Numbered from the stretch's first letter, positions 4,862 through 57,259 are shown. The stretch: 64,000 bases of DNA from an uncultured Chloroflexia bacterium (GCA_963743215.1 CAVUOY010000010.1:72225-136224); one strand, 5' to 3'. Numbers and translations are program-made. Notes: generated from the letters alone by a model not told the origin.

Positions 4862-6358
4862 ATGCAAAAGCGAATCATAAGTATCGTCGTAATCATCGTG
4901 GGGATGATAGCAATTCTGGCCGTTGTGCTCATACCCCGATTGATCAAGCGTAATCGAGTTACGATGCCAGATTATTGGCCAACCCAGGGATGGCGCACTA
5001 GTACCCCAGAAGAGCAAGGATTTGATTCCGCAAAGCTGGCGGAAGCACTGCGGACTATCCATGAACAGGGCATCAACATGGATAGCTTACTAGTAATTCG
5101 AAATGGTTCGGTGATCCTGGATGCTTACTTCTATCCTTACGACGGCTCACTGCCGCATGATTTAGCCTCGGTGACCAAGAGCGTGATGACCACGTTGATC
5201 GGCATCGCCGAAGACCAGGGCATAATCCAGCTGGACCAGCCGATTGTGAAGTATTTCGGTGACCGGACCATCGCCAATCTGGACGCCCGGAAAGAGCGCA
5301 TTACCATCCGACATTTGGCAGGCATGATGAACGGATTCGAGTCAGGCTGTCTGTCTGGAGACGAGGCGACCCTGGATGCGATGCGGGCGACAGCAGATTG
5401 GGTGCAAACTACACTCGACCGCAAGATGGCTCAGAAACCGGGCACCGGTTTCTGTTATGACAGCCCTGGAATGCACCTGCTCTCAGCAATCCTGCAGGAA
5501 GCGACCGGAATGACTACTTTGGATTATGCCCGCCAATACCTTTTCGAGCCATTGGGAATTTACGATGTGGTGTGGGAATCAGATCCTCAGGGCTACACGC
5601 ATGGCTGGGGTGATTTACATCTGAAACCAGGTGATTTAGCAAAAATTGGTTATTTATGGCTTAATAATGGTGTATGGGATGGTAAGCAAATCGTTTCGGC
5701 TGATTGGGTGGACAATGCAATTAAACCGAAAGTTAATGCGGATATAGATCAATATGGTTATGGCTGGTGGGTATCAACGAATGTTTATTACGCAATGGGT
5801 CGTGGCGGGCAAACTATGCGGGTATTTCCGTTATCGAATTCGATTATCGTCGCGACCGGATCCAACCTGGTATTTGAACAATATTTTCCATACCTGCTGG
5901 CAGCGCTAATTGATCAAGATAATGCATTGAGCCCCACTTCGGAGGGAGCAGCTCAATTAAGAGAAGCACTTGAAGCGATCACGCTACCATCTGGAGCGGA
6001 GACAACTATACCTACCCCCGAACTTGCCGGAATAGTAACCGGTCAGATGTATAAGTTAGAGCCCAACCCCATTCTTGCCGATTCACTTAGGATTGATTTC
6101 GACGCATCCTCCCAGGCCAGGATGCAGATTAAGCTTGTCGACAGAGATATACCTATCGAGGGGTCCATCGGCCTGGCGGGGAAATTCCTCCCCGCATCCA
6201 ATGGATGGGGGCTGCGAGGTTATTGGACTGATCCACATACTTTTGTCTTCGAGATATTCGACATCGGGATTATACGCTGCCAATTAAGTTATAAGGATAA
6301 TAGCCTAGAGCTAGAGGTGCTAGGTAAAAGGATAGAAGGTCGAGTGATTGATCGATAA
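4862..6358 (+). CDS. Serine hydrolase (beta-lactamase family) with N-terminal anchor and C-terminal extension
   Basis: ASVTKS, YDS, LFEPLGI, YGYGWW, AMGRGGQ; RBS AAGGAGG. Confidence 0.92.
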   Translation: MQKRIISIVVIIVGMIAILAVVLIPRLIKRNRVTMPDYWPTQGWRTSTPEEQGFDSAKLAEALRTIHEQGINMDSLLVIRNGSVILDAYFYPYDGSLPHDLASVTKSVMTTLIGIAEDQGIIQLDQPIVKYFGDRTIANLDARKERITIRHLAGMMNGFESGCLSGDEATLDAMRATADWVQTTLDRKMAQKPGTGFCYDSPGMHLLSAILQEATGMTTLDYARQYLFEPLGIYDVVWESDPQGYTHGWGDLHLKPGDLAKIGYLWLNNGVWDGKQIVSADWVDNAIKPKVNADIDQYGYGWWVSTNVYYAMGRGGQTMRVFPLSNSIIVATGSNLVFEQYFPYLLAALIDQDNALSPTSEGAAQLREALEAITLPSGAETTIPTPELAGIVTGQMYKLEPNPILADSLRIDFDASSQARMQIKLVDRDIPIEGSIGLAGKFLPASNGWGLRGYWTDPHTFVFEIFDIGIIRCQLSYKDNSLELEVLGKRIEGRVIDR

Positions 6359-20168: not shown

Positions 20169-21191
20169 ATGGACATTACTGTTCGACCACATCACCGACT
20201 AGTTACACTAATTATCTTAACCATCACCGTGGTAGGTGTGGTTCTGGTTGCATTGGATTGGAAGGATATGCGCCAAGTGCTATATGAAGCTGACTGGCGT
20301 TATCTACCCCTGGTGTTGTTATTCACTTTCACATCCTATGCGTTTTACAGCTATGCCTTCGCAGTCGTTTCTCAAATATTAGGCATACCCATGCGCAAAC
20401 GCGAGCTGGCAGAAGTGTGTTTCATCACCACCGTGGTTAACCATGTGTTGACTACCGGTGGTGTAGTGGGCTATTCCCTGCGATATTTTTTAATGAAAAT
20501 GTATCATGCCACTCTAAAGGATGTGCTCACTTCGTCCTTCCTGCATTATTACATCACAAGCCTGGACATGCTGACCTTTCTGCCCATATGCTTCGTCTAT
20601 TTGATTTTAAACGCATCCGTCCCGCGTGGGGCAGCCATTGCTCTGGGATTGATGACGCTGTTATTTAGTCTGGTGCTGGTCTTGATTACGTTGTTGGTGC
20701 TGTTTCCTTCCAGGCGCAGCCCAATGATCCATCTTTTAGCAAATCTTGGTAAAAGAATCCTGCGGCGTGATTTTACCAACTGGCTCACTCAATTTGATGA
20801 AACCCTGACATGCGGCACAGAAGTGTTCCGCCAAAAACCAATGGTGCTGCTATGGGTTATGCTACTCACCCTGCTCGATTTCTCATGCAGCATTATCGCC
20901 ATGGGATTTGTATTCGAAGCCTTAGGGCCTCCGGTAAAAGCAGGCGCACTGGTAACCGGGTATGTCATTGGAATCATGGCAGGGTTGTTATCCATGGTCC
21001 CAGGGGGGTTCGGCATCCAAGAAGGATCAATGGCCGGTATATATGCCCTGCTAGGAGTGCAGTTTGAGCAGGCTGTTCTGGCTGCCATCCTATTCCGTCT
21101 ACTGTACTACTTAGTTCCATATTTTTTGATCCTGCCGTTTTACAACCGGTTGCTCCACAAGGCAGGCATGCAATCACCCATCCATCCTTGA
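20169..21191 (+). CDS. Lysylphosphatidylglycerol-synthase TM / flippase-like membrane protein
   Basis: PGGFGIQEG, AILFRLLYY; about 8 TM helices. Confidence 0.88.
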   Translation: MDITVRPHHRLVTLIILTITVVGVVLVALDWKDMRQVLYEADWRYLPLVLLFTFTSYAFYSYAFAVVSQILGIPMRKRELAEVCFITTVVNHVLTTGGVVGYSLRYFLMKMYHATLKDVLTSSFLHYYITSLDMLTFLPICFVYLILNASVPRGAAIALGLMTLLFSLVLVLITLLVLFPSRRSPMIHLLANLGKRILRRDFTNWLTQFDETLTCGTEVFRQKPMVLLWVMLLTLLDFSCSIIAMGFVFEALGPPVKAGALVTGYVIGIMAGLLSMVPGGFGIQEGSMAGIYALLGVQFEQAVLAAILFRLLYYLVPYFLILPFYNRLLHKAGMQSPIHP

Positions 21192-21202
21192 GGAGTGAAT
21201 CA

Positions 21203-22366
21203 ATGCGTATCATGATGTTCAGCCACGGCTACCTGCCCACGCTTAGTGGAGTGACGCTTGTCGTCCAAAAGATCGCGCGAGCCATGGTGCGGCGTGGACA
21301 CGAAGTAATGGTCGTCACTGCCAGCGAGAAGCACCTGCCTTACAAGTCTGAAGATCAGGGTGTACGGCTGGAAAGAGTGTTTGGTATACCCAACCCGTTC
21401 TGGTGGGAAGGTCCAATCCCATTCATCAGTCCACCGGCTATCAGAAAGCTGGTCGATGGGTATAAGCCGGATATTATCCACATCCATGAAAATGCTTTAC
21501 TGAGCATCTTGTTGCTGATGGTGCACTGGGATAAACGCCCGGCATTTATCTCATCGTGTTATTCATTGCCTCGTTACCTCACCCAGTACCTGCATTTAGG
21601 TGGACTGGAAACCTGGTTCGAAGGAATCTTATGGAAGATTGCAATTGGCAACCTGAATAAGTTTGAGCATGTGGTCTTTTGCACCCGCACCCACGAGCGT
21701 GATTTCCTGGCGCATGGTTTGCTACCTCCGACCACAGTCATCTCCAATGGGGTAAATATCCACCGTTATCGCCCACAGATGGAACCCAGTGAGGATATTG
21801 AGAAGCGCTATCATCTACCACCAAGACCACGCATTTTATCTGTTGGGCGTTTGATGAAAGATAAAAAACTCGACATGCTGATCCAGGCGATGAGATGCGT
21901 ATGTGACCAACAGGAGGCACATTTGCTGGTTGTAGGCCGAGGCAGCGAACGCCAGCGCTTGAAAGCCATGATCCAAAAATTGAAGCTGGAGCCGTACATT
22001 CACTTGCTCGGATACGTGCCTGAACAAGACCTGCCCGCTCTTTACCGGGCGAGCGATCTCTTCGCAATTCCATCCCTGGTGGAAGTCCAAAGCTTGCCAG
22101 CCTTGCAAGCCGCAGTGACGGGTTTACCCATCGTGGCTGCTAATTCTGCCGCGCTGCCGGAGCTGGTACGGCATGGCGAAAATGGTTTGCTGGTGGATCC
22201 ATGCAATGGCAATGAATTAGGTACTGCCATTTCGACGATCCTTGGTGATCCGGATAAGGCGCGCAAGATGGGACAGGTATCGCTCGAAATTGGAAGAACT
22301 CACGATGAACAGCTCACCTTTCAGGCATACGAGGAGTTTTATAAGGGACTGGTGGGGGGAAGGTAG
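21203..22366 (+). CDS. GT4 glycosyltransferase (glycolipid synthase-like)
   Basis: YLPTLSGV, ISNGV, VGRLMKDK, PSLVEVQSL. Confidence 0.9.
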   Translation: MRIMMFSHGYLPTLSGVTLVVQKIARAMVRRGHEVMVVTASEKHLPYKSEDQGVRLERVFGIPNPFWWEGPIPFISPPAIRKLVDGYKPDIIHIHENALLSILLLMVHWDKRPAFISSCYSLPRYLTQYLHLGGLETWFEGILWKIAIGNLNKFEHVVFCTRTHERDFLAHGLLPPTTVISNGVNIHRYRPQMEPSEDIEKRYHLPPRPRILSVGRLMKDKKLDMLIQAMRCVCDQQEAHLLVVGRGSERQRLKAMIQKLKLEPYIHLLGYVPEQDLPALYRASDLFAIPSLVEVQSLPALQAAVTGLPIVAANSAALPELVRHGENGLLVDPCNGNELGTAISTILGDPDKARKMGQVSLEIGRTHDEQLTFQAYEEFYKGLVGGR

Positions 22367-25924: not shown

Positions 25925-26698
25925 TTACCCACCTAGCTGAGATGGCTCGACGAAACTGCCCATAATCACCAGATAGACTACCAATCCAATCACCAAGCAA
26001 GGTAGCTCCACCGTGACGAATGCGGTGATTGGACCAGATTTAACGAACTTACCTACCGATAAGCCACTCTTGCGCCAGGTCCATATCCAGGTGGCACCCA
26101 GAATAATGATGGCCAGGGGCACCAGCCAAACTTTTTGCCCCTCAATAAACACGATGGCCTCCCACAGCCCATACAGCAGCCCCACCACCAGACCACCTAC
26201 CCATAAACGCTTTACCACCTCATGCTTAACCAAGTAACTGGTCTCCAACACAAGCAAACACGCCAACAGACCATAACGGGAGAGATAGAGTATCACATGG
26301 GAGAGAGTCTCATCCATGAAATAGATCAGCGCGTACAGGTCTTGCGGGATGAGAGCCTTATAATCGCGGATTTCTGTTCCAAACACGTTGGTTGTGTTGG
26401 CTGTGAAGTGCATCACATGACCAATAAAGAACAGAATTGTCAGGGTGGCAAATATGCGCCGTAATCCTGGTGAAGCCTGGGTCTGCCAGAACAGCTCGAA
26501 GAATAGCACCAGACTGATGATATAGAATGCAGAATTGACCAATATTTCGACCAGGTCGGCAAAACGGAAATACCAGATCAAGTGCGTTTTAAATGCCTCG
26601 CCAATCAGAGTGGCGATGGTGTTGGCGAGAGTGAACAGGATCAATAACCATAATGTGGTTTTAGGCCAGTTTTGGGGCAGTGAATTTGCGATTTTCAT
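25925..26698 (-). CDS. Multi-pass membrane protein, probable bacterial CLN6-family homolog
   Basis: G-x3-H-x3-N-T-x-N, YxxDExLSH, EGQ and terminal EP motifs in the same order as in human CLN6 (reference recalled from memory). Confidence 0.7.
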   Translation of the reverse strand: MKIANSLPQNWPKTTLWLLILFTLANTIATLIGEAFKTHLIWYFRFADLVEILVNSAFYIISLVLFFELFWQTQASPGLRRIFATLTILFFIGHVMHFTANTTNVFGTEIRDYKALIPQDLYALIYFMDETLSHVILYLSRYGLLACLLVLETSYLVKHEVVKRLWVGGLVVGLLYGLWEAIVFIEGQKVWLVPLAIIILGATWIWTWRKSGLSVGKFVKSGPITAFVTVELPCLVIGLVVYLVIMGSFVEPSQLGG

Positions 26699-26834: not shown

Positions 26835-26885
26835 AATAAAAAAAACAACCCGTGATGAGAGGTTCTTTCTCTTCTACAGGTTGCG
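26835..26885 (-). terminator. Intrinsic terminator inside the 5' leader of the CLN6-like gene
   Basis: Minus strand CAACCTGT-AGAAGAG...CTCTCATC-ACGGGTTG followed by TTTTTTTT. Confidence 0.65.
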
Positions 26886-26977
26886 TAGTAAACCATTTTG
26901 ATCCCATTCCATCCACCCCAGATTAAGCATTACTTATATAATATGATAATTTACCCGAGAAATTCTGGGATATTTTC

Positions 26978-27005
26978 ATTATAGAGTAATTACACCTTTT
27001 GTCAA
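26978..27005 (-). promoter_or_regulatory. Consensus sigma70 promoter TTGACA-N16-TATAAT
   Basis: Both hexamers match consensus perfectly on the minus strand. Confidence 0.75.
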
Positions 27006-27236: not shown

Positions 27237-28370
27237 ATGAACCAACCTGATATCGCCCTCATTCGACTTGCCAGTCATGGACTAACTGGAACAAAATTCA
27301 ATTCTCCGAAGGAAATTGTTTCCTGGATGGGGGCAATACAAGCGCAGGACTTCCCCATGGCAAAGTGGGCTATCGGTGTGCGCTTGCCATATGCAACCGA
27401 TCAAAGTGTTGAAACAGCAATTGCCAATGCAGAGATCATCCGCACCCACGTGCTGCGACCTACCTGGCATTTTGTGGCTGCAGAGGACATTTATTGGATG
27501 CTCGACCTATGCGTGGCACAGCTGAAAGCCAGTCAAAGCTCACGTGACCGACAATTAGAGTTGACCGAAGCCATTTATACCAAGAGCAATCAAATTATCG
27601 AAAAAGCTTTATGCAATGGCGAGCACCTTATTCGGGAGGAGTTAGTCGCTGAGCTGAATAATGGCGGCATAGCTACCGATGAAAACCGGGCTGCACACTT
27701 GTTTGTACGGGCTGAGATTGAGAAAATTCTCTGCAGTGGAGCTACTCGTAATGGGAAAACCACTTATGCTCTGCTGGCCGAAAGAGTGCCAAAAGGAAGG
27801 CTACTTTCCAGGGAAGAAGCCGTAGCCGAGCTTGCCAGGCGTTATTTCACCAGCCGCTGCCCAGCCCAATTGCAGGATTTTACTTGGTGGTCAGGATTGA
27901 ATACCAGGGACGCCAAGCTGGGATTGGAACAAGTGAAATCAGCGTTCATGCCTGAAGTAATAGAAGGAAACACCTATTGGCTAACACCTGACTTCACCAT
28001 CCCTCGATTAACACAACCACTTGCCTACTTATTGCCCACTTATGATGAATTGATCATCAGTTATACCGATCGAAGTGCTTCCATCCCGTCAGACCTGGAA
28101 CAGCATTTGAAAAAAATTTCTGATCGAGGGGTATTCCGACCCATCATCGTGGTCGATGGTAAGGTAACGGGGATATGGAAACGGGAAATTCAGCAAGACA
28201 ACATGTTAATAGAAATCCAGCTTTTTACAGCCACTGATCAGCTCACTAAGAACCTGATCACCCAGGCAGCCATCCGCTTTGGGCACTTTTCGGGTGAGAA
28301 ACCAGTAGTAGTAACCGATAATTTATCATCGATCAAGTTAAATTCAAATGCTGCACAAGAAATCGGATAA
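27237..28370 (+). CDS. AlkZ/YcaQ (HTH_42) family DNA glycosylase
   Basis: GAIQAQD (QxQ), RPTWHFV, DFTWWSGL, LLPTYDE, DGKVTGIW. Confidence 0.88.
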   Translation: MNQPDIALIRLASHGLTGTKFNSPKEIVSWMGAIQAQDFPMAKWAIGVRLPYATDQSVETAIANAEIIRTHVLRPTWHFVAAEDIYWMLDLCVAQLKASQSSRDRQLELTEAIYTKSNQIIEKALCNGEHLIREELVAELNNGGIATDENRAAHLFVRAEIEKILCSGATRNGKTTYALLAERVPKGRLLSREEAVAELARRYFTSRCPAQLQDFTWWSGLNTRDAKLGLEQVKSAFMPEVIEGNTYWLTPDFTIPRLTQPLAYLLPTYDELIISYTDRSASIPSDLEQHLKKISDRGVFRPIIVVDGKVTGIWKREIQQDNMLIEIQLFTATDQLTKNLITQAAIRFGHFSGEKPVVVTDNLSSIKLNSNAAQEIG

Positions 28371-28415: not shown

Positions 28416-29084
28416 ATGATCCAACAAATCACCCCCATCCTTTTACCACTTCCGCTTAAATTGAGCGATGTAAACAGCTACCTGATAAAGACCGACGATG
28501 GATTTTTCCTAATCGACACGGGTATGACCAATGCCAGACGCCAGCTGGAAATATCCCTCGAACACTTATGCTGCCAACCGGGCGAACTAAAGCTGATCCT
28601 GCTCACGCATGGGGATTTTGACCATACTGGAAATGCAGCCTATATTCGAGGAAAATTCGACACCCGCATTGTGATGCATGCAGGCGATGCAGGTATGCTC
28701 GAAAATGGGGATATGTTCTGGAACCGAAAGATCAAGAGCTCAATTCTTAAATCAATATTGCCACTTTTTATCCGCTTTGGTAAAGATGAACAATGTACCC
28801 CAGACTTACTTTTACCTGATGGCGCTTCTCTGGCTGAATATGGCCTGGAGGCGCAAATCTTGAATACCCCTGGGCACTCGAGCGGCTCCATTTGCATTCT
28901 GACCACTGCCGGGGACCTGTTCTGTGGAGATCTGCTCTCAAACTCCACGGGCAAACCGATGCTCAATTCGATGATGTATGACAAACCAGCAGGTGATGCC
29001 AGCTTTGCGCGGCTGAAGAATTTCCCTATAAAGATGGTCTACCCAGGACACGGCAAACCATTCCGGTGGGAAGAGCTCGATTAA
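28416..29084 (+). CDS. Metallo-beta-lactamase fold hydrolase
   Basis: THGDFDHTG, TPGHS, GD, YPGHG. Confidence 0.92.
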   Translation: MIQQITPILLPLPLKLSDVNSYLIKTDDGFFLIDTGMTNARRQLEISLEHLCCQPGELKLILLTHGDFDHTGNAAYIRGKFDTRIVMHAGDAGMLENGDMFWNRKIKSSILKSILPLFIRFGKDEQCTPDLLLPDGASLAEYGLEAQILNTPGHSSGSICILTTAGDLFCGDLLSNSTGKPMLNSMMYDKPAGDASFARLKNFPIKMVYPGHGKPFRWEELD

Positions 29085-41077: not shown

Positions 41078-41602
41078 CTACTTAACATATTTCGCGTATT
41101 CGGCAGGCAATTCTATCCCGAAGCGCTGGCAAAGAACCATTACATCATGATAATCGTTTTCATCCAACGTGTAGCCGGAATGAAACTTGACCATATTCTC
41201 AACATCGATGCACCTGACTGGATGATCGAGGATACTACCATTTCCGTTTAGTGATTCAAGTGGATAATCCAATCCCTGTTCGGGGTGGTTCACCCTATCG
41301 AGGGTATAAGTGTGGATATCCACCAGATGACCATGATCATCCCCCAACACATAATTAACCGGACGCGTGTCTGGTCGGGGCACATCTCTGTAGCCATGCG
41401 CTTCTAACAACTCTCGCAGGCGGGATGAATCTTCATAGGCAATGACGATATCCAGATCAGCATGGCAGCGGGTTTGCTCCCCCAGTAATGCATCCACACC
41501 CCAGCCTCCGTCCAGTATCACTTCGATGTGGTCTTGCTCAAAAAGCTTAACTAACGCAAGCGCAGCCTCAGCGGTCATTTCAGGTTGGGTAACAGGAGTC
41601 AT
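41078..41602 (-). CDS. Nucleotidyltransferase, Lnu/ANT(2'')-like
   Basis: LDGGWGVDALLGEQTR.HADLD, VDIH, FHSGY. Confidence 0.88.
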   Translation of the reverse strand: MTPVTQPEMTAEAALALVKLFEQDHIEVILDGGWGVDALLGEQTRCHADLDIVIAYEDSSRLRELLEAHGYRDVPRPDTRPVNYVLGDDHGHLVDIHTYTLDRVNHPEQGLDYPLESLNGNGSILDHPVRCIDVENMVKFHSGYTLDENDYHDVMVLCQRFGIELPAEYAKYVK

Positions 41603-56705: not shown

Positions 56706-56827
56706 ATAATCCGGAATAATGTTGGATTATGAGTATTGCTAGGAGCAGATTGATTATATGAAAACGCTGCACCTCCAGGATATACTTTGTTTTGACGGCA
56801 AAGGTCCTGAGAAAGGAAAGGTGCAGC

Positions 56828-57259
56828 ATGGAGAATTATACGATAGGATGTGACGCACATAAATATTATTCACAAATATCTGTAATGGATAACAAAGCAC
56901 GAGTGTGTAAACGGACAAGGATCGAACATACATCAGGAGCGATCCAGAAATACCTGGAGCAATTTCCGGCTGGTACACCAGTGGCATTAGAATGCGTGGG
57001 TAACTGGTACTGGATCGTAGATGAGATCGAAGCAGCGGGTTGTGTCGCCCAACTGACCAATGCGTGGAAGGCTAAAGTAATGATGGGTCATGTGAATAAA
57101 ACCGACAAACTCGATGCTGATGGGTTGGCACTACTTTTATACAATGGTACTTTACCAACCGTATGGATCCCGGATGAGGTGTTGCGAGATGAGCGGGAAC
57201 TGCCCCGCACACGAATGGCAATGAGTAAGTACTCTTCAATTATAGCACAGATGTTCTAA
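56828..57259 (+). mobile_element. IS110 family transposase, N-terminal DEDD fragment
   Basis: IGCDAHK, VALE, KTDKLDA; truncated before the C-terminal domain. Confidence 0.9.
57239..57258 (-). promoter_or_regulatory. Extended -10 overlapped by a LexA-like box
   Basis: TAGAACATCTGTGCTATAAT = GAAC-N4-GTGC plus TGnTATAAT. Confidence 0.5.

Follow-up and report, generated by a model that had tools for sequence, protein, structure and literature searches.

Loss of CLN6 leads to a fatal childhood neurodegeneration (Batten disease), and the human protein is about 311 residues long. According to the main texts of two preprints posted on 9 October 2026, human CLN6 is a Ca2+-dependent epimerase of the ER that converts R,S- to S,S-glycerophosphoglycerol, a step of S,S-BMP synthesis that precedes those of CLN8 (TLC family) and CLN5 (bioRxiv 10.64898/2026.10.07.757350 and 10.64898/2026.10.07.757477). 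These reports have overtaken the statement, made in a sequence-only reading of the locus described here, that no enzymatic activity of CLN6 is agreed upon.

The same main texts identify the residues on which the human activity depends. Alanine at D59, D131, D173, E174, H178 or E227 abolishes rescue, while the H178A, H127Y, D59E, R62C, R149C and L168V variants are inactive as purified proteins (bioRxiv 10.64898/2026.10.07.757350 and 10.64898/2026.10.07.757477). R62H is a CLN6 patient variant, both R62C and R62H are inactive, and the pocket is described as lined by Y182 and Y223 (same two preprints). In QM/MM calculations, H178 attacks the phosphorus to form a phospho-histidine, and the remaining primary hydroxyl of the same glycerol then displaces the histidine, amounting to a 1,3-phosphoryl migration (bioRxiv preprints 757350 and 757477). 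The CLN6 homodimer is an AF3 model; E227 sits at the luminal end of helix 5, and D59 and R62 at that of helix 2 (same preprints). The human mechanism as a whole comes from these preprints, with its phospho-histidine step taken from QM/MM modelling and no experimental structure (bioRxiv 757350 and 757477). The words bacteria, prokaryote and ortholog are absent from the main texts of both preprints. Likewise, literature searches for CLN6 together with bacterial, prokaryotic or archaeal homologs, and for its Pfam family PF15156, found no report of prokaryotic CLN6 homologs.

The gene, its leader and its neighbours

The window analysed here is a stretch of 64,000 nucleotides from an uncultured Chloroflexia bacterium of soil or sediment (GCA_963743215.1, CAVUOY010000010.1:72225-136224). 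It contains a minus-strand open reading frame (Table 1) that is a real gene and not a chance ORF. All six strings quoted by the sequence-only reading were recovered in this single frame and in the order given there: LWLLILFTLAN at residues 16-26 of the translation, ADLVEILVN at 47-55, FFIGHVMHFTANTTN at 90-104, LIPQDLYALIYFMDETLSHVILY at 116-138, GLWEAIVFIEGQ at 177-188 and VEP at 250-252. The encoded protein, P0001, has 30 homologs at E ≤ 1e-3 in a word-indexed search, all of them unnamed or annotated as "hypothetical protein" and 0 of the 30 with a Pfam domain. An exhaustive phmmer search with P0001 against 1.84 billion cluster representatives returned 116 proteins at E ≤ 1e-3, 51 of which reached E ≤ 1e-10. 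P0001 alone gave no Pfam, NCBIfam or PDB-sequence match at E ≤ 10. AlphaFold2, supplied with a 65-row alignment (A2), predicted with high confidence (pLDDT 94.5, pTM 0.91) a protein of seven helices, spanning residues 11-35, 46-72, 77-110, 119-159, 166-186, 190-211 and 223-246 and followed by a conserved C-terminal E-P-S (residues 251-253).

Table 1. Positions of the CLN6-like gene, its motifs, its leader and other features in the window
Feature	Position	Strand	Remarks
CLN6-like membrane protein CDS	25925..26698	minus	ATG start; 257 aa (P0001)
D129-E130-T-L-S-H134 codons	26297..26314	minus	D-E-x3-H motif, helix 4
G93-H-V-M-H97-F-T-A-N101 codons	26396..26422	minus	helix 3
N101 codon	26396-26398	minus	
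D48 codon	26555-26557	minus	
Leader	26838..26919	minus	conserved block within leader, then long hairpin and T8 run; between promoter and CDS
Promoter-like TTGACA-16-TATAAT	26978..27005	minus	12/12 sigma-70 consensus; ~270 nt upstream of start codon
AlkZ-like DNA glycosylase gene	27237-28370	plus	193 bits; divergent from CLN6-like gene
Metallo-beta-lactamase-fold gene	28416-29084		downstream of AlkZ-like gene
Lysyl-phosphatidylglycerol-synthase-type TM domain gene with GT4 glycosyltransferase gene	20169-22366	plus	first overlaps start of second
Two beta-lactamase-family (PF00144) genes	1527-2828, 4862-6355		
Aminoglycoside-2''-adenylyltransferase-like gene	41081-41602		
IS110-type transposase fragment	56792-57256		155 aa

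The gene is isolated on its strand, flanked by a leucine-carboxyl-methyltransferase-like gene on one side and the AlkZ-like glycosylase gene on the other. The loci nearest to it are found in uncultured Chloroflexota MAGs, and the family is rare in the phylum, with counts of 5 among 401 sampled genomes and 5 among 218 genera, its own genome included. Locus L001 (88% identical) is the sole one with the same gene arrangement; L002-L005 share no neighbour with the window. Pfam annotation of 25 flanking genes at eight divergent loci (L002-L005 and L008-L011) revealed no recurring theme and, for want of conserved neighbours, genome context indicates no pathway. Neither PF03798 (CLN8/TLC) nor PF15014 (CLN5) was found at E ≤ 1e-3 in the genome, which is 80% complete, and 14 control genomes were silent as well. 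One GDPD phosphodiesterase gene is present in the genome, on another contig.

Some neighbours deserve mention at the level of individual loci. At L002, a Na/Ca exchanger gene immediately precedes the CLN6-like gene, and a gene for a YdjM-family membrane hydrolase follows it (L002:4581-5672 and L002:6760-7236); the exchanger is of note because human CLN6 needs Ca2+, albeit at a single locus. A lipid A-type (lysophospholipid-like) acyltransferase gene occurs once, two genes upstream of the CLN6-like gene at L003 (L003:3992-4897). Within the window, the lysyl-phosphatidylglycerol-synthase-type and GT4 genes look like a lipid-modification pair; the two are conserved in L001. Some 3.5 kb separate them from the CLN6-like gene, to which no evidence connects them.

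Both hexamers of the promoter-like sequence are identical in L001, and comparison of these two sequences likewise showed the leader block to be conserved. The hairpin and its T8 run have the shape of an intrinsic terminator. The element may belong to a leader of attenuator or riboswitch type, or may represent an independent small RNA some 140 nt long. The leader had no Rfam match at E ≤ 1, and the fold of the whole leader gave a z-score of -0.77. The sequencing runs listed for the locus are of DNA only (shares ≤ 0.15), with no RNA run among them.

Relationship to the CLN6 family

Comparison with the Pfam CLN6 model, a check suggested along with the proposed homology, gave a divided answer: PF15156 matches relatives of P0001, but not P0001 itself, even at E ≤ 10. 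A six-frame scan of its own genome and a scan of 401 genomes of the phylum also yielded no PF15156 match, with 14 control genomes equally silent in each case. Among the relatives, the profile matched four of the 29 close homologs, the best at E 8.4e-4. In a set of 85 divergent relatives there were 12 matches at E ≤ 0.01, and in another 29 there were 15 at E ≤ 1, two of which (P0084 and P0107) are already counted among the 85. Eleven other Pfam families appeared in the 85 divergent relatives, each in one protein, leaving PF15156 as the sole recurrent Pfam family among relatives of P0001. The best match, P0042, aligns over residues 38-190 to profile positions 60-223 with 26.3 bits (E 5.8e-6); it is itself related to P0001 at E 1.2e-25, and its precomputed annotation in the collection's table is PF15156.12. 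The curated cut-off of the family is 27 bits, and no relative reached it in these scans. In a protein-language-model search, PF15156 was found on 12% of the 362 mostly bacterial members of an Atlas look-alike cluster (score 0.93).

The position of the matches is informative. They are collinear and span profile positions 24-249 across different members. The D-E-x3-H motif falls inside the PF15156-matched stretch in 21 of 21 members, at interpolated profile positions 138-147, and at position 144 exactly in the five short matches; this check covered 21 of the 25 distinct PF15156-matching proteins, P0153, P0158, P0160 and P0162 being left out. As a background control, we scanned 46 unrelated proteins of the window, of which 13 have at least three hydrophobic segments, and PF15156 matched none of them at E ≤ 1. 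At the level of the superfamily, the suggestion of a bacterial CLN6 homolog is therefore supported, by a family that recurs in the relatives and is anchored on DE-x3-H.

Because P0001 has no match of its own and its best relative remains below the cut-off, we class it as a distant relative at superfamily level rather than a member of PF15156; by the 27-bit cut-off, it lies outside the curated family. Taken together, the profile data and conserved motifs make it very probable that P0001 represents a distant bacterial lineage within the CLN6 superfamily, and we file it as such, with the catalytic core kept and the pocket altered.

The relatives also include three proteins from eukaryotic data sets, found by phmmer with P0001: P0088, from an EukProt transcriptome (325 aa, E 4.1e-9), P0111 from Amoebidium parasiticum (EukProt; 327 aa, E 2.8e-6) and P0107 from Gefionella okellyi (EukProt; 251 aa, E 2.1e-6). 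All three are CLN6-sized, have N-terminal extensions and keep G93, H97, D129, E130, H134, G177, E186 and the C-terminal P-S. P0088 and P0111 have no PF15156 match even at E ≤ 1. This leaves two readings, a narrow Pfam model or a weaker-than-apparent link to animal CLN6. In a quick tree of 82 rows, the eukaryotic three fall, together with P0042, into a 35-row group (SH-aLRT 86), and P0001 belongs to the sister clade of 19 rows (SH-aLRT 98). Contamination of the transcriptomes is a possible origin of these EukProt sequences.

Conserved residues and predicted architecture

We mapped P0001 onto human CLN6 solely through printed residue numbers, spacing and the Pfam profile. D129, E130 and H134 form the only invariant columns of A2 (65 of 65 rows), and D-E-x3-H is intact in 130 of 132 full-length relatives. 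The spacing D129-E130-x3-H134-x3-Y138 equals that of human D173-E174-x3-H178-x3-Y182; Y138, four residues after H134 as Y182 is after H178, is Y or F in 58 of 65 rows. By this correspondence, H134 is the proposed phospho-histidine nucleophile and the putative equivalent of human H178. On helix 3, H97 is present in 62 of 65 rows of A2 and in 123 of the 132 relatives, and H97-x3-N101 reproduces the spacing of human H127-x3-D131. Column 101 holds N in 60 and D in 5 of the 65 rows (N 116, D 14 and R 2 of 132), and H94 is less conserved (49/65). E186, the last residue of helix 5, is kept in 63 of 65 rows and in 124 of 132 relatives; it lies 52 residues from H134, compared with 49 between E227 and H178 by the printed human numbers. 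The polar H, D, E and N residues singled out as shared in the sequence-only reading are indeed conserved among homologs and make up the most conserved columns of A2. As for the human motifs it gave, three of the four catalytic ones fit the spacings in the preprints, while the TM2 motif has, three residues after its Asp, a His where the preprints have Arg62.

Helix 2 carries at its outer end two acidic residues that are candidates for the counterpart of human D59, namely D48 (58/65) and E/D51 (62/65 rows, 121/132 relatives). No basic residue is found three positions after either D48 or E51, column 54 being hydrophobic; R45, three residues before D48, is present in 50 of 65 rows and 97 of 132 relatives and may substitute for human R62. 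I182, four residues before E186 at the position of human Y223, is aliphatic in most rows. Among the 132 relatives, D48 is paired with N101 in 111 rows and a non-acidic residue 48 with D101 in 11, while both columns are acidic in none. The D101 rows, though their mutual identity is 16-58%, may go back to only a few evolutionary events. As the carboxylate is exclusive between columns 48 and 101, helices 2 and 3 would contribute to one site, which suggests that one carboxylate of this shared site can sit on either helix. Column 51 remains acidic where column 101 is D, so the counterpart of human D59 may be E51 and not D48. Altogether, the proposed active-site residues of P0001 are D48, E51, H97, N101, D129, E130, H134 and E186.

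Loop charges differ between the two sides of the predicted bundle, with 9 K+R and 1 D+E on the N-terminal side and 5 K+R and 7 D+E on the C-terminal side. Because of these counts, the positive-inside rule predicts an N-in/C-out topology, in which the N-terminus would be cytoplasmic, the C-terminus outside and the site facing outward. Every conserved polar residue of P0001 lies in the C-side (outer) half of the membrane. Complex prediction also indicates that P0001 is homodimeric, with an ipSAE of 0.84 compared with 0.00 for the best of three controls. The mark used for this score was reached by 20 of 30 solved one-chain pairs and by 1 of 23 solved single chains, a rough calibration given that a custom alignment was used. 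Contacts agreed by at least 93% between homodimer runs, partner pLDDT was at least 87, and the predicted interface is symmetric, running along helix 3 and also involving helix 2 and the beginning of helix 4.

Structure databases offered no template for this fold. A profile of A2 had no match among PDB sequences, and the best Foldseek match of the P0001 model in the PDB had E 0.39, with TM ≤ 0.29. The Foldseek matches to Rce1 (E 2.1) and PgpB (E 2.2) were dismissed as noise, and a wide VIA-align search returned generic helix bundles only, with Z ≤ 8.9, in the range that is uninformative for helical proteins. Sequence and fold searches of the PDB thus found no CLN6-like chain; that a solved relative was not found does not imply a novel fold.

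Proposed reaction, alternatives and known counterparts

The explanation we favour, and consider probable, is that P0001 is a homodimeric seven-helix membrane enzyme remotely related to CLN6; by analogy with the human protein, it would carry out 1,3-phosphoryl migration on a glycerophosphodiester. D48/E51, H97/N101, D129/E130/H134 and E186 would line a cavity at the outer membrane face, where the carboxylates would hold one or two divalent cations and thereby position the phosphate of the substrate. H134 would then attack the phosphorus to form a covalent phospho-histidine, and the second hydroxyl of the same glycerol would displace the histidine, shifting the phosphate to the other primary carbon and inverting the configuration of the glycerol. 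Of the individual elements, phosphoryl-transfer catalysis through H134 is likewise rated as reasonably likely, and metal-assisted transfer through this residue on a glycerophosphodiester at the outer face is the most likely activity, which may end in stereoinversion, as in CLN6, or in hydrolysis or transfer to an acceptor. The earlier suggestion of an ancient family with a metal-binding or catalytic site and lipid-type substrates is supported by the conserved H, D and E residues, which occur at the spacings of those essential in human CLN6. Whether P0001 is a true glycerophosphoglycerol epimerase is more doubtful, since its pocket departs from that of the human enzyme and the search for partners in the BMP pathway came up empty. 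To our knowledge, bacteria have neither lysosomes nor BMP.

The altered pocket bears on the nearest alternative, in which P0001 is a CLN6-superfamily phospho-histidine enzyme with a different outcome, water or another alcohol resolving the intermediate. P0001 would then be an outward-facing glycerophosphodiester hydrolase, or a phosphoglycerol/headgroup transferase acting on outer-leaflet lipids or envelope polymers. The catalytic core is kept, yet pocket positions differ (N101, no R62 equivalent, I182), CLN8 and CLN5 partners were not detected in the genome (controls silent), and the patchy spread over 5 of 401 genomes would fit an accessory envelope or scavenging role. However, hydrolysis or transfer has no positive evidence in its favour, the only characterised relative being an isomerase, and the genome already has a GDPD-family phosphodiesterase. 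We judge this outcome rather unlikely.

The profile evidence could also be read as a false lead, with P0001 unrelated to CLN6 and the weak PF15156 matches produced by transmembrane composition together with a convergent D-E-x3-H. All PF15156 scores are below the curated cut-off, P0001 itself and the eukaryotic P0088 and P0111 have no match, and the relatives are mutually homologous, so that repeated weak matches are not independent. Against this, the E-value of P0042 (5.8e-6) is still significant after correction for about 140 scanned proteins, the matches are collinear over profile positions 24-249, and the membrane proteins in the set of 46 controls gave no match. Moreover, four separate motifs occur at the spacings of experimentally essential human residues, and helix number, topology and dimer state all fit CLN6. 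We judge this reading improbable. Least probable of all is a protein with the CLN6 fold that has no enzymatic role but conducts or transports divalent cations, or acts as a scaffold in the membrane, its conserved acidic and His residues doing no more than bind metal: the intramembrane carboxylate/His cluster, the dimeric architecture and the Na/Ca exchanger gene immediately upstream at L002 could fit an ion-binding site, but the strictly invariant His serves as nucleophile in the one relative that is characterised, the predicted topology opens the site to a single side, and the exchanger neighbours the gene at one of the eight divergent loci.

As a remote relative, P0001 indicates that the CLN6 fold and its catalytic residues are not confined to animals. 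It could serve as a simple model for studying CLN6: a small, confidently folding prokaryotic homolog with the core kept and a predicted dimer would be a practical target for structure determination, trapping of the intermediate and definition of the metal site. The natural variation of the pocket (D48/N101 to N48/D101) separates residues of the chemistry from those of substrate choice, which aids the reading of patient variants. A broader proposal, which we rate as speculative and rather unlikely, is that bacterial CLN6-type enzymes interconvert sn-3 and sn-1 glycerol-phosphate diesters at the outer face by 1,3-phosphoryl migration. Were this true, bacteria would make or salvage "wrong-handed" headgroups, for example those of lipoteichoic-acid-type polymers or archaeal lipids, and the stereoinversion used for animal lysosomal BMP would be an ancient prokaryotic reaction, inherited or acquired by eukaryotes.

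Among known enzymes, members of the PLD/HKD superfamily also use a histidine to attack a phosphodiester, giving a covalent phospho-histidine that is resolved by a hydroxyl or by water. For these phosphodiesterases and transphosphatidylases, the likeness to P0001 is a mechanistic analogy only: their fold is unrelated, their motif is HKD and their reaction is metal-independent, and we saw no sequence or fold match to them. Human CLN6 is the closer counterpart, although the two proteins differ in several respects. P0001 is shorter (257 residues versus about 311) and lacks the cytosolic N-terminal extension; it has N101 in place of D131, for which the column-48 carboxylate appears to compensate within the family, no basic residue at the R62 position, and I182 where Y223 would be. 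Searches of its genome detected neither a CLN8 nor a CLN5 partner, with the controls silent too. In common with human CLN6, P0001 is predicted to have seven helices, a cytoplasmic N-terminus, and its C-terminus and cavity on the exoplasmic side. Both carry D-E-x3-H-x3-aromatic on helix 4, H-x3-(D/N) on helix 3, a Glu ending helix 5 and acidic side chains where helix 2 ends on the outer side, and both are modelled as homodimers, by our prediction for P0001 and by AF3 for the human protein.
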